Below are positions 1 to 50,850 of a DNA stretch of 51,814 nt, in pieces. The DNA is taken from assembly GCA_905216045.1 (NCBI GenBank), contig CAJMSL010000001.1, positions 1 through 51,814 of the forward strand, given 5' to 3'. The position numbers and the translations under genes were made by a program. Below the pieces are notes generated by a model. The model saw only the letters and a list, made by a program, of their open reading frames with translations, searched no databases and was not told the origin of the DNA. The DNA is from an uncultured bacterium. Lineage in GTDB: Bacteria; Actinomycetota; Coriobacteriia; Coriobacteriales; Coriobacteriaceae. Each line of letters opens with the position of its first letter. Position 1 is the stretch's first letter.

Positions 1-117
1 GCCTTGAAACATGGCGGCAGTGATCTTCTGATCATGCCGCCGAAGTTGAAAGGCAGATTGCCGCTCTGGCGGGCTTGCAGCGTCAACTGGTTACGCGGGT
101 TGGTAAACCCGCGTAAC
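1..117. repeat. Structured intergenic element A, copy 1 (cut by window edge)
   Basis: GCCTT-GAAAC..GGCGGCA-g-TGATC-TTCT-GATCA-TGCCGCC-GAAGTTGA-AAGGC..GCAGCGTC..GTTACGCGGGTT/AACCCGCGTAAC; same architecture as 19931-20096 and 23370-23537. Confidence 0.85.
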
Positions 118-533
118 TACAAATCCCCGCCGGCGCCCAGCAGCTTGCGCATGACTTGCTCGGGGTTAACTGAGCCGTCGCGCGGGGCCAGGGCGGTGAT
201 CTTCTTTTGCATCTTGTACTCGTGCAGCTCGTCCTCGAGCTGGCGTACGCGGGCGCGGAGCTTCTCGTTCTCGCGTTCGCGCTCCTCGGCACGCTCCTTC
301 ATATCGAGGATGCGCACCACGCCGGCGAGGTTGATGCCCTCGTCGGTCAGTTGGTTGATGAGCTCCAGGCGCTCGATATCGGCACGCGAATACAGACGCG
401 TGTTGCCGCCCGAGCGCTGGGGATTCACCAAGCCTTTGGACTCGTAGACGCGCAGAGTCTGCGGGTGCATGCCGGTCAGCTCGGCCGCCACGCTGATCAT
501 GTACAGCGGTTTGTTCCTATTGTCCTCGGCCAT
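117..533 (-). CDS. hspR: Heat-shock repressor HspR (MerR family)
   Basis: YMISVAAELTGMHPQTLRVYE..R.S.G.TRLYS MerR HTH; last gene of dnaK-grpE-dnaJ operon. Confidence 0.93.
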   Translation of the reverse strand: MAEDNRNKPLYMISVAAELTGMHPQTLRVYESKGLVNPQRSGGNTRLYSRADIERLELINQLTDEGINLAGVVRILDMKERAEERERENEKLRARVRQLEDELHEYKMQKKITALAPRDGSVNPEQVMRKLLGAGGDL

Positions 534-605
534 GCTACCTGACCCCTTTCCGTCTCGTTATTGTCCATCATAAGCCCGTGGGCGCGGGCGTGCGCCGCGA
601 CCGCC

Positions 606-8192: not shown

Positions 8193-9218
8193 CTAGCGTG
8201 CTGCGTACTCGAGCATACGGTCGAGCGTGAGCTTGGCCTGGTCTGCTGCCTCGTCCGAGACGCCGATCTGCACCTCGCCCTCGCCCGTCTCCAGGCAGCG
8301 CACGAGCTTCTCGAGCGTGATGAGATCCATGTTGACGCAGGTGGGCTGCACCACGGGGAAGTAGAACTTCTTGCCGGTGCCCTGGCAGCGGCGCTCGAGC
8401 TCGTAGAGCACGCCGCGGACCGTCACGATAATGAACTCGCTCGCGTCGGACTCCTCGGCATACTTGATGATGCCGGCGGTGGAGCCGATGTAGTCGGCCT
8501 CGGCCAGGACGTCGGCCTTGCACTCGGGGTGCGCCAGCACGAGCGCGTCGGGGTGGGCCTCCGTCGCGTCGACGATCTGCTCGACGGTGATGATGTGATG
8601 GCGCGGGCAGTAGCCGTTGTTGAGGATGACGTGCTTTTGCGGCACCTGCTCGGCTACGAAGCGTCCCAGGTTTTGGTCGGGAATGAACAAAATATGCTGC
8701 TGCGGCAGCTCGGACACGATCTTAACGGCGTTGGAACTGGTGACGCACACGTCGCTCCAGCTCTTGATCTCGACCGTGGAGTTGACGTAGCACACCACGG
8801 CCAGGTCGTCGCCGTACTCGGCGCGCGCCGCGTCGACCGTCTCGCGCTTGACCATGTGCGCCATGGGACAGTCCGCGCCCGGCTCGGGCAGCAGCACGGT
8901 CTTAGTGGGATTGAGCAGCTTGGCGCTCTCGCCCATAAACTCCACGCCGCACAACACGATGGTCTGCTGCGGCAGGCTTTTGGCGAGCTTTGCCAGGTAG
9001 AAGCTGTCGCCGACGTAATCGGCAACGGCTTGGACCTCGGGCGCCACGTAATAGTGCGCCAGGATCACCGCGTCACGTTGGGTTTTTAGTTGCTGAATGG
9101 CCTCGACGAGCTCTGCGGGCACCAGTGCCGCACGCTCCGTTGCCGTCGTTGCCGATGCCAAGCCGGCCGCGATATCGCGTGCAAGCTCCGACGCATCCAT
9201 GTTCGCGCTCTGTGCCAT
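8193..9218 (-). CDS. nadA: Quinolinate synthase
   Basis: ILAHYY, GDS, CGVEFM, CPMA, YVNS, HPEC, C..M Fe-S cysteines. Confidence 0.97.
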   Translation of the reverse strand: MAQSANMDASELARDIAAGLASATTATERAALVPAELVEAIQQLKTQRDAVILAHYYVAPEVQAVADYVGDSFYLAKLAKSLPQQTIVLCGVEFMGESAKLLNPTKTVLLPEPGADCPMAHMVKRETVDAARAEYGDDLAVVCYVNSTVEIKSWSDVCVTSSNAVKIVSELPQQHILFIPDQNLGRFVAEQVPQKHVILNNGYCPRHHIITVEQIVDATEAHPDALVLAHPECKADVLAEADYIGSTAGIIKYAEESDASEFIIVTVRGVLYELERRCQGTGKKFYFPVVQPTCVNMDLITLEKLVRCLETGEGEVQIGVSDEAADQAKLTLDRMLEYAAR

Positions 9219-13707: not shown

Positions 13708-16179
13708 ATGCGGCATGTGCATATTCATGTGACGGGCATTGTGCAGGGCGTTGGCATGCGACCGTTTGTGTATCGCGAGGCCATGGCGCATGGCATTTGC
13801 GGATGGGTGCTCAATGCGGGCGACGGCGTGCATATCGAGGCGCACGCTCCGGCCGATGCGCTCGATGCTTTTGTTGCCGCGCTTTCTGAGCATGCACCTG
13901 CAGCAGCCCGCATAGAGTATGTCGAGGTTGTGGACCTGGCAGCCAACGGTTGGGATGCCGCCGATGAACAGGGCTTTCGCATCGTAGCATCGCAGGGCCA
14001 GCCCGCACACACGACGCTCGTCTCGCCCGACATCGCTACCTGTGACGATTGCCTGCGCGAATTGTTCGATCCCGCCGACCGACGCTATCACTACCCCTTT
14101 ATCAACTGCACTAACTGCGGCCCACGCTTTACCATCATCCGATCGCTGCCTTATGACCGAGCGGCCACGTCGATGGATTGTTTTCCCATGTGTCCCAAGT
14201 GCGCTGCGGAGTATGTCGACCCACTCGACCGGCGTTTTCACGCGCAGCCCGATGCCTGCTTTGATTGCGGGCCGCATATTACGTGGCGCGAGGTTGTAAA
14301 CGGCAATGCGTGCGGGAATTCGTCCGCGACACCGGCCGTCGGCACCACACGCGAGGCCAGCGACGCTATCATCGAGCGCTGCGTTGAGCTGCTGGCCAGC
14401 GGTGGCATCGTCGCCATCAAGGGCCTGGGCGGATTCCATCTAGCCTGTGACGCTGCCAACGAGCAGGCGGTGGCCGAGTTGCGCCGTCGCAAACGCCGCA
14501 GCAACAAACCACTTGCCGTCATGGTACGTAGTCTTGCTGATACCGAGCGCCTGTGTCATATCGATGATGCTGAACGCGATCTGCTCGCTGGCAGTATCCG
14601 CCCCATCGTGCTGCTGCGCCGGCGCACTGTTAGCGAGGACAACGACGGTTCCCCCGACATCCTCGCCCTCGCGCCATCTGTCGCGCACGACCTGCCCGAG
14701 CTCGGCGTCATGCTCCCCTATACGCCGCTTCAACATCTGTTGCTTGCCGCGGCAGAAGTCTGCGGTATGCACGCGCTCGTCATGACCAGCGGAAACCTGA
14801 GCGAAGAACCCATCGAGACCGACGACGACCTTGCCTGGGAACACCTCGTTGCCGCCGGCATCGCCGACGCGCTGCTCGGTAACGACCGCGCGATCCTCTC
14901 GCGCTACGACGACTCTGTAGTGCGCGTGGTCGACGGCGCCATTATGCCCGTTCGCCGCGCTCGCGGATATGCACCCCAGCCACTGCCGTTGCCGGCGCTC
15001 GACGGCGCTCCGTCCTGCGTGCTCGCCTGCGGGCCACAACAAAAGGCCACGATTGCGCTCACGCGTGAAGGGACGAACGGCGAGGCGACCTGTTTTGTGT
15101 CGCAGCATATCGGCGATGTTGAAAACGGCGGGACCTTCGATGCCTGGAACGCCGCGCGCACGCGCTTGGAAGATCTCTTTGACTTGGCGCCCGCCGCCTT
15201 GGCCTGCGATGTGCACCCCAGCTATCTATCGGGCCAGTGGGCGCGCGAGCAGGCGCGAAAATGCAATCTGCCGCTCGTCGAGGTGCGGCACCATCATGCG
15301 CATATCGCGAGCGTAATGGCCGAGGCCATCGCCGCGGGCCAGCTTACAACCGACGCGCGTGTCCTTGGCATCGCCTTTGACGGCACCGGCGCCGGCACCG
15401 ATGGGACCATTTGGGGCGGCGAGTTTCTTGTTGCCAGCCTTGGCGGCTTTGAGCACGCCGCGCATTTGCGCACTTGGGCGCTCCCCGGTGGGGCGGCCTC
15501 CGTGCGCGACGCCCGCCGCAACGCCTTTGCCCTGCTCAGTGAGCTCGGCCTGCTCGAGCACCCAGGTGCCGCTCGGCTTTTGGACAGCCTCGACGAGCAA
15601 ACGCGCAGCGTGACAGCTACCATGATCGAGCGCGGCATCAACAGCCCGCGTACCAGCAGCATGGGGCGTCTCTTTGATGCCGCGGCGGCGATTCTGGGCA
15701 TCTGCAACAAGGCAACCTACGAGGGCGAACCCGCCATCGAGCTTGAGGCCGCCGCCTGGCGCGCGCTCGACAACGAAATCGCCCATTTTCCCGACGACAA
15801 CGCCGGCTATTTCGCATCTTGCCCATCGTGGCTGGACGGCCCCTATGTTCTAGACCAGAAAGCACTCTTTGAGGCACTTTTGGGAGGAATTGAAGCCGGA
15901 GCGCCCGCCGACAGGCTCGCACTCGACTTCCATGTCGCCGTCGCGCGCTCCTCGGCGCGCATCGCCAGCGATATCTGCGTGCACGAGGGCATCGACACCG
16001 TCGCGCTCTCGGGCGGCGTGTTCATGAACCGACTTCTGCTTCAGCTTCTCACCCGCGAGCTCAAAAGCATGGGTCTCACTGTCTTGATTCCCCAAACCGT
16101 GCCCGTTAACGACGGCTGCATCGCCTACGGTCAGGCGGCAGTCGCAAGCGCTCGTCTTGCGCAGATTGCATCGCAGTAG
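13708..16179 (+). CDS. hypF: Carbamoyltransferase HypF
   Basis: G.VQGVGMRPFVY acylphosphatase domain, CxxC Zn fingers, IKGLGGFHLAC, HHHAH, DG.G.G.DG..WGGE, NDG.IA.GQ. Confidence 0.97.
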   Translation: MRHVHIHVTGIVQGVGMRPFVYREAMAHGICGWVLNAGDGVHIEAHAPADALDAFVAALSEHAPAAARIEYVEVVDLAANGWDAADEQGFRIVASQGQPAHTTLVSPDIATCDDCLRELFDPADRRYHYPFINCTNCGPRFTIIRSLPYDRAATSMDCFPMCPKCAAEYVDPLDRRFHAQPDACFDCGPHITWREVVNGNACGNSSATPAVGTTREASDAIIERCVELLASGGIVAIKGLGGFHLACDAANEQAVAELRRRKRRSNKPLAVMVRSLADTERLCHIDDAERDLLAGSIRPIVLLRRRTVSEDNDGSPDILALAPSVAHDLPELGVMLPYTPLQHLLLAAAEVCGMHALVMTSGNLSEEPIETDDDLAWEHLVAAGIADALLGNDRAILSRYDDSVVRVVDGAIMPVRRARGYAPQPLPLPALDGAPSCVLACGPQQKATIALTREGTNGEATCFVSQHIGDVENGGTFDAWNAARTRLEDLFDLAPAALACDVHPSYLSGQWAREQARKCNLPLVEVRHHHAHIASVMAEAIAAGQLTTDARVLGIAFDGTGAGTDGTIWGGEFLVASLGGFEHAAHLRTWALPGGAASVRDARRNAFALLSELGLLEHPGAARLLDSLDEQTRSVTATMIERGINSPRTSSMGRLFDAAAAILGICNKATYEGEPAIELEAAAWRALDNEIAHFPDDNAGYFASCPSWLDGPYVLDQKALFEALLGGIEAGAPADRLALDFHVAVARSSARIASDICVHEGIDTVALSGGVFMNRLLLQLLTRELKSMGLTVLIPQTVPVNDGCIAYGQAAVASARLAQIASQ

Positions 16180-19616: not shown

Positions 19617-19788
19617 CGGAAAGCGCATCCCGTTTTGGAGCTCCGGAATGGGATATGCTTTCCGTTTGAGGCGCATCAGGGAAACCGCATCCCGTTTCAG
19701 AGCAATATTCCGGGTCGCACTTTCCGCAACCCACCCCATCCGGAAAATGCGACCCACTATTCGGCCAAAAACCGGGTCGCATCTTCCC
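19617..19788. repeat. Second array of three 62-bp-period palindromic units
   Basis: (C/G)GGAAA at 19617, 19679, 19741; same unit as 4681-4852. Confidence 0.85.
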
Positions 19789-19862
19789 AAGCACTCGATG
19801 CAACGCTGGCACAAGGAGTGTCCCCAACTACCGGCAGAAAAGGAACGTCCCCAAGTGCCGCC

Positions 19863-19910
19863 TGGTCATTTAAGAACGTCCCCAATGACTAAGAACGTCC
19901 CCAATGACTA
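19863..19910. repeat. GTCCCC-loop hairpin with 19-bp tandem duplication
   Basis: GTCATT-TAAGAACGTCCCC-AATGAC then AAGAACGTCCCCAATGACT again. Confidence 0.8.
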
Positions 19911-19930
19911 CAAGTGCCGCACCATGGCAA

Positions 19931-20096
19931 CGACGCAGGTAGAGAATGGACAGCGAGCGACGTCCAGGACGAACAAGTTGGCATGAAAAAGGCGAGGCAT
20001 AGACCTTCTGGTCATGCCTCGCCTTTTGAATGCCAAATTGTCGTCCTGGGCGGCGCGCAGCGTCAACTGGTTACGCGGTTCGTAGAACCGCGTAAC
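19931..20096. repeat. Structured intergenic element A, copy 2
   Basis: CGCAGGTAGAGAATGGACAGCGAGCG + long hairpin with GACC-TTCT-GGTC apex + GCAGCGTC + GTTACGCGGTTC/GAACCGCGTAAC. Confidence 0.88.
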
Positions 20097-20099
20097 CCC

Positions 20100-20657
20100 C
20101 TAGCTCAGCATTGCATCCATCATCTCGGAGTTGACGGAGTCGTCGGCAGACCACTCGCCGTCGTCGTTGCAGGTGTACTTGAAGATAACCGTGGTCTTCC
20201 TGGGCTCGGTGGCCTTGGTCACATCGACCATAACCTGACCGGCCATCTTGTACAGCTCGTCATCGGAAGGAACCGTGTCAAGCGCGGCGACCTTCTCCTG
20301 ATACTGGGTGGAGAAGTCCTCGACGATCTTGTTCATAGACTTGCAGGTGATAGAGACCTCGGCGGTCGCGACACCCTTGTCCTCGTCGACCGTCACGTCG
20401 CCGATCTTGTAGTCAAAGCCCTCGAGATAGGTCTTGGCATACTCCTTGGGATCGATACCCAGCTGCTCGAACTCGTCGCCCGAAGCTTCCTCCAGACCAG
20501 AAAGGAAGTCGTCGCCACCGTTCTTGACCTCGTCAAACTGAGTCGTAAGATCCTCGGTGATGAGCTCCTCAACCGAAGGACCTCCACAGCCGGAAAGCAC
20601 GACCACACATGCAACCAAGACGGCCATGAGGGGTGCAAGCAGCAGCTTCTTTTTCAT
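20100..20657 (-). CDS. Lipoprotein of unknown function
   Basis: MKKK + hydrophobic signal + LSGC lipobox; acidic mature domain; GGGAGG RBS. Confidence 0.85.
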   Translation of the reverse strand: MKKKLLLAPLMAVLVACVVVLSGCGGPSVEELITEDLTTQFDEVKNGGDDFLSGLEEASGDEFEQLGIDPKEYAKTYLEGFDYKIGDVTVDEDKGVATAEVSITCKSMNKIVEDFSTQYQEKVAALDTVPSDDELYKMAGQVMVDVTKATEPRKTTVIFKYTCNDDGEWSADDSVNSEMMDAMLS

Positions 20658-20838
20658 GTTGTTCCTCCCAATGAGCGGCACTGCGCTTCCCAGACGCGGC
20701 GCACGTTGTAATAAGTAAGCCCATACTATCCGCTTATGAACACCCTCGGCAACGCGAAGGCACGGTCGGTTCGTTTTAGCGTCCGAACGGTTTGCAAGCC
20801 CGCCCAACGTGCAATAAAACGCTTTCCCGCGGTGCAAT

Positions 20839-20870
20839 AAAAAAGGTGGCCGGAAAACCCGACCACCCTT
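20839..20870 (-). terminator. Intrinsic terminator after PTS IIA gene
   Basis: Minus strand GGTGGTCGG/CCGGCCACC + T6. Confidence 0.75.
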
Positions 20871-20893
20871 GCACATCCTTTGGATGCCGCAAT

Positions 20894-21881: not shown

Positions 21882-21981
21882 TAATAACGACTTCTCATCA
21901 TTAGATTGTTTACATCAATTCTAATAACTATTTAATCCTTAAACTCGTTATTAGAATTGATATGATTAGCCTAATAACGAG
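21882..21981. promoter_or_regulatory. AT-rich fic promoter with repeated TAATAAC boxes
   Basis: TAATAAC at ~21882, 21922, 21972 and inverted at 21947; perfect 15-bp inverted repeat ATCAATTCTAATAAC/GTTATTAGAATTGAT. Confidence 0.6.
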
Positions 21982-22010
21982 TTTCCGGCACTAAAGATAT
22001 GGAGGGCGCG

Positions 22011-23183
22011 ATGCAAATCGAGGAGAACGGCCAGGGAACGCTCCGCAATAATCTATCGGGGAAATTGGCTTACTATTCGTTTTTTCCAACGCCCTTGCAA
22101 TCATTGAGGCAGCTAAACCTCACCGAGGAAACCTATCGCACGCTTTCCGCATGCTCACGAAAGCTTGGAGAGCTTGAAGGCATGCTCTACTTTGTTCCCA
22201 ACGCCGACATGTATCTGACAATGTACGTGCGCAAAGAAGCACTCCTTTCTTCGCAAATTGAGGGAACCCAGTGCACGTTTGACGACCTACTTAGTCCATC
22301 GCAAACACAACTCCATCATAAAGATGTCGCAGACGTCGTGAATTACGTCCGTGCTGTCGACCGCGGCGTAGAACTGCTCAAAAAGATGCCCTTGTGCACG
22401 AGACTTCTTAGGCAAGTTCATGCGGTCCTGCTGGACGGAGTGCGCGGAACGGAGAAGAATCCAGGCGAGCTGCGCTCCTCACAAAACTGGATTGGCCCCT
22501 CAGGCTGCACCATTGCAACCGCATCGTTTGTCCCTCCAAACATTGAAGATTTGAGTAACACGCTCCAGGACCTCGAACGCTTTATCAATGAGCCTCAAGT
22601 CGAAATGGATCCGATTGTGCGGGCGGCGCTCGTCCATTACCAATTTGAAACTGCCCATCCATTCCTAGACGGAAACGGTCGCCTGGGCAGGCTTCTCATT
22701 ACACTTATGCTCATCAATGATGGCGTTCTTCATTCTTGCTTGTTCTATCCATCGTTCCAGTTCAAGAAAAATCGAAGCGAGTACTACCGGCAACTCACAT
22801 CCGTAAGGGAGAGAGGCACTTACGAGGAATGGATAGAGTTTTTCTGCAACAGTCTTCTCGAGAGTGCGAAGGACTCGGTAGGGTCTTTAAAAAACCTTGA
22901 TGACCTCCATAACCGTTCCACAGCAACCATTACCGAAAATCTCGGAAGGACTGCTGCAAACGGGCAAAGGCTGTTGGGCATTCTTGAAGAGCACCCCATC
23001 GTCGACACCGCATTCATCGCTGCCCAACTCGATATCGGCAGGAGTACCGCGAGCTCGCTCGTCAAATCATTTGAAGAATTGGGTATCCTCCGTCCGCTCG
23101 ACGAGTCAAGACAGAGATACCGGCAGTACGGGTATGAAGAGTATCTTTCGATTCTCAGGGAAGACGCCGAGCCGATTAGATAG
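22011..23183 (+). CDS. Fic-family protein (class II, C-terminal HTH)
   Basis: HPFLDGNGRLGR catalytic motif, SSQIEG inhibitory motif; codons visibly more AT-rich than neighbours. Confidence 0.93.
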   Translation: MQIEENGQGTLRNNLSGKLAYYSFFPTPLQSLRQLNLTEETYRTLSACSRKLGELEGMLYFVPNADMYLTMYVRKEALLSSQIEGTQCTFDDLLSPSQTQLHHKDVADVVNYVRAVDRGVELLKKMPLCTRLLRQVHAVLLDGVRGTEKNPGELRSSQNWIGPSGCTIATASFVPPNIEDLSNTLQDLERFINEPQVEMDPIVRAALVHYQFETAHPFLDGNGRLGRLLITLMLINDGVLHSCLFYPSFQFKKNRSEYYRQLTSVRERGTYEEWIEFFCNSLLESAKDSVGSLKNLDDLHNRSTATITENLGRTAANGQRLLGILEEHPIVDTAFIAAQLDIGRSTASSLVKSFEELGILRPLDESRQRYRQYGYEEYLSILREDAEPIR

Positions 23184-23276: not shown

Positions 23277-23282
23277 CCTGAG

Positions 23283-23311
23283 TAGTCATTTATGAACGTC
23301 CCCAATGACTA
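23283..23311. repeat. GTCCCC-loop hairpin
   Basis: TAGTCATT-TATGAACGTCCCC-AATGACTA. Confidence 0.8.
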
Positions 23312-23369
23312 GTCCGGCAACGCCGATGTTTCGGCAACGACAGCGAGCGAGCCGCATTCGGAGCAAGAC

Positions 23370-23537
23370 GACGCCGCAGGTAGAGAACGGACAGCGAGCG
23401 GGTCGCATTTGAGGCAAGGTGACGTGAAACGAAAGGGCGCTGACCTTCTGGTCGCGCCCTTGAAGTTGAACGTCAGATTGTCCAAATGCGGCCCGCGCAG
23501 CGTCGAGCAGTTACGGCGTTTGGTAAAACGCCGTAAC
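23370..23537. repeat. Structured intergenic element A, copy 3
   Basis: CGCAGGTAGAGAACGGACAGCGAGCG + long hairpin with GACC-TTCT-GGTC apex + GCAGCGTC + GTTACGGCGTTT/AAACGCCGTAAC. Confidence 0.88.
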
Positions 23538-24217
23538 TAACGTGCTCCGTACTTCTCGTAGTAGGCGTCGATGGCAGTCTTGAGCTCGTCGTCGATGACA
23601 ACCTTGCCGTCGATCTCGTGGTTGTAGAGGGTCTCGACGACCTCGGCCATGGAGACGATGCTCGCGACGGGGAAACCGTACTTGGCCTCGATCTCCTTCT
23701 GAGCGGTGGTCACACCGCCCTTGCCGACCTCCATGCGGTTGAGGGACACGATCAGGCCCTTGATCTCGACATCGGCAGCAGCCTTGACCTTAGGATAGGT
23801 CTCGTCGATGGACTTGCCGCTGGTGGTGACGTCCTCGACCATGACCACACGGTCGCCGTCCTTGGGCTCATAACCCAGCAGGTTGCCCTTATCGGCACCG
23901 TGGTCCTTGGCCTCCTTGCGGTCGCAGCAGTACTTGACCTCCTTGCCGTACAGCTCGTGGTAGGCAATTGCGGTCACGACGGCCAGCGGAATGCCCTTGT
24001 AGGCCGGTCCAAACAGCACATCAAAGTCGTCGCCGAAGTTATCGTGGATGGCTTGGGCGTAATACTCGCCCAGCTTCTTGAGCTGATAGCCCGTCACGTA
24101 AGCGCCGGCGTTCATAAAGAACGGGGACTGACGGCCGCTCTTGAGCGTAAAGCTGCCGAACTTAAGGACGTCGGACTCGACCATAAACTTGATGAACTCT
24201 TGCTTGTAAGCCTCCAT
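23537..24217 (-). CDS. pyrE: Orotate phosphoribosyltransferase
   Basis: FGSFTLKSGRQSP.F.N, GPAYKGIP, RKEAKDHG, VEDVTTSG. Confidence 0.97.
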   Translation of the reverse strand: MEAYKQEFIKFMVESDVLKFGSFTLKSGRQSPFFMNAGAYVTGYQLKKLGEYYAQAIHDNFGDDFDVLFGPAYKGIPLAVVTAIAYHELYGKEVKYCCDRKEAKDHGADKGNLLGYEPKDGDRVVMVEDVTTSGKSIDETYPKVKAAADVEIKGLIVSLNRMEVGKGGVTTAQKEIEAKYGFPVASIVSMAEVVETLYNHEIDGKVVIDDELKTAIDAYYEKYGAR

Positions 24218-29334: not shown

Positions 29335-29365
29335 CCACTCATTTAAGTACGTCCCCAATGAGTGG
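29335..29365. repeat. GTCCCC-loop hairpin with compensatory stem
   Basis: CCACTCATT-TAAGTACGTCCCC-AATGAGTGG. Confidence 0.75.
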
Positions 29366-50809: not shown

Positions 50810-50850
50810 TAGTCATTGGGGACGTTCTTAAATGACTACCCAATGACTAC
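50810..50850. repeat. GTCCCC-loop hairpin (reverse orientation) plus extra half-arm at deacetylase stop
   Basis: TAGTCATT-GGGGACGTTCTTA-AATGACTA-CCCAATGACTAC. Confidence 0.8.

Follow-up and report, generated by a model that had tools for sequence, protein, structure and literature searches.

The window analysed here, the whole stretch of 51,814 nucleotides, is contig C1 of a Collinsella draft genome (2.02 Mb in 222 contigs, 60% G+C) and contains three related hairpin elements, each lying against the 3′ end of a gene (Table 1). All three have the same orientation on the + strand, and the neighbouring genes are on the − strand and convergent with them. A sequence-only reading of this DNA had described three equally oriented copies placed against the TAG stop codons of an hspR-like, a lipoprotein and a pyrE-like gene, and this arrangement is correct: the terminal GTAAC lies at −1, +3 and −1 nt from the respective TAG, and at copies 1 and 3 the last C is common to the element and the stop codon. 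No Pfam match was found for the lipobox protein. Copy 2 has internal loops of AACAAGTT opposite AAATTG and TGAA opposite TGAA, and the apex GACCTTCTGGTC. Copy 3 matches a copy on contig C4 (30707-30858) at 97% identity over 153 nt. Just upstream of it lies what is left of an older copy, and this layout of remnant plus full copy is present at six loci (L097, L107, L136, L140, L147 and L163).

Table 1. Features at the three element copies in the window and their neighbours
Feature	Position	Strand	Remarks
Copy 1	1..117	+	Rod 3′ half, GCAGCGTC, terminal hairpin 90-117; contig start cuts the copy
MerR-family (HspR-like) gene	117..557	-	PF13411, E 3.4e-21; TAG overlaps copy 1 end by 1 nt
Small-hairpin-repeat cluster, core GAACGTCCCCAA	19816..19904	+	On the 5′ side of copy 2; separate family
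Copy 2, whole	~19922-20096	+	Core 19947-20096
Copy 2, 5′ module of CGCAGGTAGAGAATGG type	19922..19946	+	
Copy 2, core to linker	19947..20069	+	CAGCGA, rod ~19957-20056, GCAGCGTC 20057-20064, linker
Copy 2, terminal hairpin GTTACGCGGT-TCGTA-GAACCGCGTAAC	20070..20096	+	+3 nt from TAG of convergent gene
Lipobox-protein ORF (MKKKLLL..LSGC)	20100..20876	-	Stop TAG 20100-20102
Older-copy remnant	23316..23367	+	ATGTTTCGGCAACG-type 5′ module, CAGCGAGCG, start of 5′ arm; ends GCAAG
Copy 3, complete	~23366-23537	+	5′ module, core 23388-23537, terminal hairpin 23510-23537
PyrE-like phosphoribosyltransferase gene	23537..24217	-	Docked by copy 3

The three hairpins are copies of one family of structured non-coding repeats of about 180 nt. 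Read 5′ to 3′ on the + strand, the parts are a 5′ module, CAGCGA, a rod, GCAGCGTC, a 5-nt linker and a terminal hairpin. The 5′ module is ~25-30 nt long and has at least three alternative forms (CGATGTTTTGGCAACG, CGCAGGTTGAGCATAAGT and CGCAGGTAGAGRACGG); the CGCAGGTAGAGAAYGG stretch that the sequence-only reading had listed among the conserved unpaired parts is present, but is one of these alternatives and not a constant of the family. The rod is ~50 bp with fixed purine-rich internal loops, GCAAGGT opposite CAGATTG and TGAA opposite TGAA (the tandem G-A type), and is capped by GACC-TTCT-GGTC, one subfamily having a C(UUCG)G apex on the + strand. The terminal hairpin, GTTACGCGGTT-(GGTA)-AACCGCGTAAC, has GTTAC..GTAAC ends and a stem of 12-13 bp with a 4-nt GGYA loop, and the idea that it is an 11-6-11 recombinase core site was dropped on this reading of the stem. 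The 3′ end of the element is sharp at GTAAC, with a weak T/A preference at the next base (0.35 bits); the 5′ end is fuzzy, with conservation across 41 genomic slots (see below) fading ~30 nt before the core. The fold of copy 2 has a predicted energy of -105.4 kcal/mol compared with -56.7 +/- 4.2 in 200 shuffles (z = -11.7).

Three copies proved to be a large undercount. An nhmmer search of the draft genome with a two-copy seed gave 38 matches, or 35 places after removing reverse self-hits, 28 of which are full length and four of which run off contig ends. A covariance model (CM) was built from 24 of the 28 full copies, leaving out four without the hairpin or the 5′ arm, and it has 41 matches in the draft genome, a few being pieces of one copy. 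A family-wide CM survey, with up to 25 candidates scored per genome, was positive in 104 of 121 genomes of the same bacterial family, with 86 of 91 in the genus itself and 2/3, 0/1, 6/12, 5/9 and 4/4 in other genera. Across the class there are matches in 42 of 151 genomes, among them 25/30 in f1 and 16/24 in a second family of the order (f3); the 96 genomes surveyed from 21 further families gave none. The sequence-only reading of the element as a multi-copy family is thereby supported. Five of the f3 genomes have 39, 46, 39, 38 and 13 matches. A few Collinsella species have 1-4 copies or none, and in one single-copy species the copy is behind the same class II tRNA-synthetase gene as a copy here (on contig C5). 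The family is ancient, within the order Coriobacteriales. Searches of Rfam 15 gave no match at the gathering score in the whole window, and at E <= 10 the interval 19780-20140 returned only miRNA-precursor and hairpin noise, scoring 10-35 bits where the cut-offs are 40-100; we therefore reject a known RNA family as its identity, and the sequence-only reading was right to recognise none. A Collinsella-1 motif is said to have been described by Weinberg et al. in 2010, and neither Rfam search returned such a match. Our full-text search for repeats and RNA motifs of Collinsella or Coriobacteriaceae found nothing on the element.

Selection clearly acts on the fold and not on the sequence of the stems. 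In a plain MAFFT alignment of the 24 draft-genome copies, 94.8% of cells are paired, compared with 75.4% in shuffles and 30-40% when the partner is slid, and 34 of the 52 pairs have changed on both sides. Corresponding values are 95.4% and 37 of 52 for 105 distinct copies from ~100 other Collinsella loci, and 90.3% and 40 of 52 for 31 f3 copies from four genera, both of these alignments being fitted to the CM and so leaning towards the model. In each of the three alignments none of 500 shuffles reached the observed pairing values. The strength of the covariation is on par with that of accepted structured RNAs. The earlier claims that paired segments differ yet stay complementary, and that it is the structure that is selected, thus hold in the draft genome, in other Collinsella and in f3. 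The apex CTT, TGAA/TTGAA, GCAGCGTC and the terminal hairpin are invariant columns, again as claimed, and both bacterial families retain CAGCGA(G) and GCAGCGTCG as unpaired blocks.

Most of the Collinsella copies are docked at gene ends. In the draft genome the stop codon of a convergent long ORF is -1 to +8 nt from the final C of the hairpin in 20 of the 28 full copies (TAG 14, TAA 6, TGA 0), and the eight undocked copies include one that runs off its contig. Among other Collinsella, 66 of 90 copies are docked (TAG 48, TAA 18, TGA 0), at distances of -1 (20 copies), 0 (17), +1 (6), +2 (4), +3 (13) and +4 to +6 nt (6); in f3 docking is seen in 14 of 31 copies, with TGA at 3 of the 14 stops. A co-directional stop codon within 8 nt of the 5′ end of the element is present in just 5 of 85 copies (other Collinsella). 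One copy faces a convergent tRNA-Gly gene, whose 3′ end is 5 nt away. There are exceptions, including a C4 copy at 14663 between two co-directional genes and a slot in which the next gene has its start codon 5-7 nt beyond the hairpin. The element always meets the stop codon hairpin first, and is therefore transcribed as the 3′ untranslated region of the docked gene. Crude ORF calling in the draft genome gives 709 TAG, 574 TAA and 271 TGA stops (n = 1554), and because TAG is the commonest stop anyway, it is only mildly enriched at docked genes (14/20, p = 0.04). The absence of TGA at docked Collinsella stops is more telling than the excess of TAG, although this is not so in f3. The proposed placement 'right after TAG' therefore stands as regards docking, but TAG is partly a property of the genome and the f3 copies also dock at TGA. 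A TA-dinucleotide target in the style of Tc1, IS630 or ERIC is suggested by the lack of TGA among the 20 and 66 docked stops and at all 27 docked slots; it is weakened by the TGA stops in f3, by spacings that vary between -1 and +8 nt, and by there being no TA that marks a defined 5′ end.

When the 123 copies from the draft genome and foreign loci are grouped by their 3′ flanks they form 41 clusters, or slots, of which 27 are docked (19 at TAG and 8 at TAA), and because so many copies share only 41 slots, many must be orthologous. The copy at the lipoprotein gene is present in most Collinsella species, and slots behind genes for class II tRNA synthetase, NrdD, DAHP synthase and PyrE-like proteins are kept across species. 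The occupants of a slot can differ, and in 15 of 29 multi-copy slots the basal stem is different between species. The lipoprotein slot, for example, is a mosaic in which four types of rod are combined with two 5′ modules and three types of hairpin, and in three species a 10-nt remnant of an older hairpin lies between the new copy and the stop codon; the DAHP synthase slot has three subfamilies in three species. There are also unrelated loci with cores up to 97% identical and different 5′ modules, and several loci, including copy 3, where the 5′ part of an older copy is upstream of a full one. This patchwork is the outcome that would be expected from copy-to-copy recombination through the conserved blocks, and is by itself no proof of transposition.

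In four distant Collinsella species the pyrE stop codon is followed by unrelated sequence and the element is absent, and since these sites hold unrelated sequence, new slots appear to have been colonised at some time. We looked for empty sites among distant pyrE orthologues, in near relatives of contigs C32 and C4, and by comparing the flanks of 95 foreign copies with the draft genome. The five candidate empty sites and the four distant pyrE sites all have a replaced, unrelated or decayed spacer (at one candidate just the last 14 nt of a decayed copy are left), and the comparison of filled and empty sites between relatives that the sequence-only reading had in mind gave no clean pair, exact junction or target duplication. 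Past insertion is thus something that we infer, because neither these nor terminal inverted repeats were found. GTTAC is present at two empty sites and was considered as an insertion target, an idea dropped when three other empty pyrE sites were seen to have none. Two element-free slots (C99 and C22) have what reads by eye as an ordinary terminator-like hairpin. Differences in gene content are also seen, with a 3.3-kb block containing an amino-acid permease and a split agmatine deiminase lying between two direct copies; the block is missing in two relatives, where one copy is kept.

Stranded RNA-seq was examined in three runs of a single study on a relative (90% likeness), and the reads mix paralogous copies of another strain. 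Most of the RNA there is from the − strand, in the same sense as the docked genes: depth with the first mate on the + strand versus on the − strand is 418 versus 57 at copy 2, 192-340 versus 50-98 at copy 3 and, with the same polarity, 590 versus 49 in pyrE. In these paralogue-mixed reads, gene-sense depth declines from ~590 in pyrE to 340, 192 and 32 across and beyond copy 3, and at copy 2 gene-sense reads pass through without a clear drop. RNA of the + strand contributes ~12-30% of depth over the copies, and the lipoprotein gene has zero depth. No discrete RNA starts or ends were seen in the relative's raw stranded reads, and ends could not be called because the listed 'begins' are clipped reads of paralogues. 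In the gene sense, just 13 of the 24 copies have UUU(U) after the rod (pair 11/113).

The wobble pairs point to the other strand. In the two well-aligned helices of the Collinsella copies, G-U on the + strand outnumbers A-C by 70 to 31 (18 versus 6 positions), with a count over all helices of 77 versus 72 because one subfamily is misaligned in the apical helix. In f3, outside a poorly aligned helix, the + strand counts are 91 versus 9 (17 versus 6 positions); two neighbouring conserved positions account for 37 of the 91, and the 30 loci are a best-scoring set that may favour G-U. The + strand also folds ~10 kcal/mol better in 27 of 28 copies, which is owed to the loops and not to wobble, because G-U counts are equal in the two MFE folds (46 and 45). 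Together this is moderate evidence that the fold is kept on the strand antisense to the docked gene, and the wobble asymmetry fits poorly with a function in gene-sense RNA. In the complete genome G140, taking the origin to be beside dnaA, the + strand is the presumed leading-strand template (that is, lagging-strand sequence) in 28 of 36 copies, but this decides nothing, because gene orientation alone predicts the same bias.

A nuclease, recombinase or reverse transcriptase gene next to some copies had been suggested as something to look for, and Y1/HUH, TnpB and reverse transcriptase genes do not co-occur with the element. The draft genome has one Y1_Tnp-domain gene (on C50, 269 aa), situated between sufU-like and cysteine-desulfurase-like genes and with no element copies near it; from its motifs, read by eye, we take it to have HVR at the position of the HUH motif and to lack the Tyr where one would normally stand. 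Its homologues are present in 27 of 30 f1 genomes, 2 of 24 f3 genomes and also in element-free families. A Y1/HUH (RAYT-like) partner is rejected on motifs, context and co-occurrence, the f3 figure of 2/24 for the protein comparing with 16/24 for the element. No TnpB scored over the cut-off in the draft genome, and a TnpB/omega-RNA link is rejected on that ground, as is an IS110 bridge-RNA-like origin on the ground that the three IS110-family loci have no CM match. Reverse transcriptase (RVT_1) was not found in the draft genome and is patchy elsewhere (8/26 in the genus and 6/24 in f3), and retro-mobilisation is likewise rejected. Four tyrosine-recombinase genes are present in the draft genome. 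No transposase gene is joined to any copy in the flanks examined there, and no arrays were seen, the copies being dispersed over the 41 slots. As a separate observation, one IS110 element is inserted in the small companion repeat.

The explanation that we favour, at a probability of roughly 0.45, is that this is an ancient structured repeat of the ERIC, REPIN or MITE kind, docked at gene ends and kept by inheritance and copy-to-copy recombination. The family would have colonised ~40 gene-end slots per genome; the copies seen today would mostly be inherited in place and would have been reshuffled between slots by recombination, with the conserved blocks providing the homology and probably with no dedicated transposase taking part. 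The fold, and not the stem sequence, may be read by RNA machinery at gene ends or by some other factor.

Several other explanations account for part of these data. The copies could be a host cis-acting RNA module of the 3′ untranslated region (a 3′-end stem-loop, a stabiliser, or a device for termination or translation termination), selection for which would account for the placement at stop codons, with mobility being incidental. The dominance of gene-sense transcription and the drop in depth at copy 3 agree with this, as do the housekeeping-gene slots kept across species, the terminator-like hairpins that stand in its place at the two element-free slots, and the upkeep of the fold in more than 130 copies with no enzyme in sight; in E. 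coli, REP hairpins within ~15 nt of a stop codon reportedly have an effect on how translation terminates (Liang, Rudd and Deutscher 2015). However, on the gene-sense strand each G-U pair turns into a C-A mismatch, and it is the opposite strand that carries the conserved purine-rich loops and, in one subfamily, the UUCG apex. The U run is present in about half of the copies, copy 2 is read through, and a quarter or more of the copies are away from a convergent stop (8/28 here and 24/90 elsewhere), and we regard this module as unlikely. The strand asymmetry that troubles it would instead suit a non-coding RNA gene in many copies, transcribed on the + strand and running antisense to the end of the docked gene, for which the greater + strand stability, the C(UUCG)G apex and tandem G-A type loops, and the + strand share of the RNA could also be cited. 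Such a gene is nonetheless very improbable: its three alternative 5′ modules have no shared promoter-like motif by eye, the stranded reads have no discrete starts or ends, in 47 of 85 copies the 300 nt upstream contain no co-directional gene, and an independent gene would not need a position and orientation tied to its neighbour's stop codon.

The folded + strand could also be recognised as single-stranded DNA by a recombinase or nuclease, much as integron attC sites, IS200/IS605 ends or Xer-exploiting elements are, and that enzyme would move the elements and sometimes the genes between them. The excess of G-U over A-C on one DNA strand is compatible with this, and CAGCGA and GCAGCGTC flank a covarying rod as unpaired blocks in two bacterial families; the sharp 3′ and fuzzy 5′ ends, the stacked and truncated copies at one slot, the four tyrosine-recombinase genes, and the 3.3-kb block that is absent in two relatives leaving one copy are of the same kind. 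We nevertheless consider it unlikely. The only Y1/HUH gene does not look active and fails on co-occurrence, TnpB does not reach the cut-off, the IS110 copies are without the element and one of them targets the small repeat, there are no arrays, slots are conserved across species, and the + strand is the presumed leading-strand template at 28 of 36 G140 copies, subject to the assumed origin and the confounding with gene orientation. The sequence-only reading had offered either a protein-read single-stranded DNA site or a structured 3′ untranslated region or non-coding RNA; the HUH/attC side is opposed by the results for Y1_Tnp, TnpB and reverse transcriptase genes and by the lack of a clean filled/empty pair, and the untranslated-region side gains from the gene-sense RNA and loses by the G-U pairs on the opposite strand. 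A decidedly unlikely variant is that rod and hairpin form a strand-specific recognition structure for a putative trans-acting factor conserved in Coriobacteriales, acting on the strand antisense to the docked gene either as folded DNA through which elements and adjoining gene blocks are exchanged at gene ends or as an RNA device guarding those ends. If true, a dominant genus of the human gut would have a new class of structured nucleic-acid element, and the DNA version would amount to chromosomal cassette exchange, integron- or pdif-like, without a known enzyme.

Whatever its role, one conserved fold makes up ~0.3% of each genome (~40 copies x 180 nt) in common human-gut bacteria. The element marks exactly where housekeeping genes end, it coincides with differences in gene content between species, and it breaks short-read assemblies, several contigs of the draft genome starting or ending inside copies. 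It is also a natural case for the question of whether repeats that hug stop codons are selfish DNA, gene-end signals, or both, a question that can be tested here because the strand on which the fold is kept is not the one that is mostly transcribed.

The element can be compared with several known systems. An intrinsic terminator would have a GC-rich hairpin with a U run behind it in the transcribed sense and transcripts that end there; here the U run is present in 13/24 copies, and depth falls at copy 3 and not at copy 2 (in paralogue-mixed reads). The element resembles attC sites and IS200/IS605 ends (PATEs) in being a hairpin defined by structure and specific to one strand, in keeping certain bases unpaired, in its place at gene 3′ ends, and in the one gene block bounded by two copies. 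However, there are no cassette arrays and no integron integrase was identified, although the four tyrosine-recombinase genes exist. In attC sites GTT/AAC is at the inner end of the stem, whereas in the Coriobacteria element it is at the outer end. As regards IS200/IS605, neither TnpA nor TnpB was identified in the draft genome, and whereas the active strand of that family would be on the lagging-strand template, the better-folding + strand is on the presumed leading-strand template in 28/36 G140 copies, with the origin assumed at dnaA. With MITEs the element shares a short (~180 nt), non-coding, multi-copy (35-41) nature and a long hairpin fold, but searches for Y1_Tnp, TnpB, IS110 and reverse transcriptase gave no transposase partner, and terminal inverted repeats and target duplication were not demonstrated. 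REP, BIME and REPIN sequences are likewise abundant extragenic palindromes behind genes, with covarying stems, fixed short motifs and coexisting subfamilies per genome, and IS110-family elements insert into such hairpins; the Coriobacteria rod is much longer and its arms are not themselves palindromes, and it differs from REPIN-RAYT systems in having no single-copy RAYT gene that is flanked by it or co-occurs with it.

ERIC is described as a ~127-bp MITE found at 3′ end regions that is co-transcribed and affects mRNA stability, and has terminal inverted repeats, target duplications and a TA motif at both ends (PMC3184786). The Coriobacteria element is like ERIC/IRU in being a dispersed non-coding repeat of 100-200 bp with one long imperfect hairpin, located at gene 3′ ends, co-transcribed, orientation-dependent and shared by the members of a bacterial family. 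A relation in sequence would not be expected, the two come from different phyla (Actinomycetota for the Coriobacteria element), and the likeness is of kind only. It departs from ERIC in its two-part construction, a rod with a separate 12-bp hairpin, in its alternative 5′ modules, and in having no demonstrable terminal inverted repeats or TA duplications; its hairpin end lies 0-8 nt from the stop codon, and its wobble asymmetry is on the strand antisense to the gene. With these departures noted, the closest systems in kind are the structured intergenic repeats of the ERIC and REP/REPIN types.

A second dispersed repeat, a hairpin of ~27 nt (TAGTCATT-GGGGACGTTCTTA-AATGACTA), is spread through the draft Collinsella genome G000, which also carries the rod element (the ~180-nt structured repeat). 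Its core, GAACGTCCCCAA, occurs 27 times exactly and 62 times with at most one mismatch, compared with 0 and 10 occurrences respectively in the reversed genome. These occurrences form 47 clusters in both orientations, ten of which adjoin rod elements. In one variant a GGCACTT/AAGTGCC stem encloses the identical loop and thus this small repeat, like the rod element, has covarying stems around a fixed loop. There is also a third type of hairpin repeat, with the sequence GTTGCGGTGAAATAGTTCC ... GGAACTATTCCACCGCAAC followed by ACATCGAGCTGTTAGG. One of the slots (conserved genomic places, mostly gene ends, occupied by the rod element across species) contains a rod element in G000 (contig C32, 8877–9136), and has the third repeat instead in three relatives. 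Positions of these and other features are listed in the table.

Hairpin repeats, genes and contig ends (contigs, C, are those of G000; L, individual loci; G, genomes)
Feature	Location	Position	Remark
Small hairpin repeat	window	19816–19904, 23280–23312, 29347–29358, 50816–50827	
Third hairpin repeat, orthologous slot	L070–L072 (G167, G002, G156)		
Third hairpin repeat, elsewhere	L086, L174, L088	5′ flanks	
Fic/DOC-domain gene with HTH tail	window	21999–23183	5′ side of rod-element copy 3
Y1_Tnp-domain protein gene	L076 (C50)	513–1322	269 aa
IS110-family element	L078 (C37)	~1195–2640	DEDD_Tnp_IS110, 118 bits
Contig ends inside rod elements	C1, C69, C164, C124	start	
Contig ends inside rod elements	C7, C201	end	

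The rod-element copy at 9167–9317 of contig C2 has a 3′ arm that is exactly complementary to its 5′ arm, so that both internal loops are erased, and it looks as if one arm has been copied from the other. In this short-read assembly a number of contig boundaries fall within rod-element copies; the repeat therefore breaks the assembly, and the true copy number in G000 may be higher.

Gene content varies near some of the copies. Two direct copies of the rod element flank an amino-acid permease gene and an agmatine-deiminase gene that is split into two frames (L056, contig C4 9000–16000; 2349–5663). Both genes are missing from G156 and G167, and at the same place G002 and G004 have extra genes, including those for a carbamoyltransferase, a LuxR-type regulator and an AAA/DUF4143 protein. 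At the place of the Fic/DOC-domain gene, ~1.8 kb is absent from another Collinsella, and RNA-seq reads from a relative give zero depth over 21979–23100 of the window. The commonest stop codon of G000 is TAG (709 of 1554 ORFs, with 574 TAA and 271 TGA), an unusual preference for bacteria; these counts are of ORFs of at least 150 codons, called crudely from stop to stop and filtered on GC3.

The Y1_Tnp-domain protein of G000 has HVR in place of HUH and lacks a tyrosine at the usual place (motifs read by eye), and has an HTH-like tail at its C-terminus. This protein, conserved across 27 of the family's 30 genomes, looks like an inactive, domesticated relative of a transposase. On contig C37, one of the small hairpin repeats has its loop interrupted by the IS110-family element, which is preceded by GAACGTCC and followed by CCAACGACTA; such targeting of REP-like hairpins is a known trait of the IS110 family.
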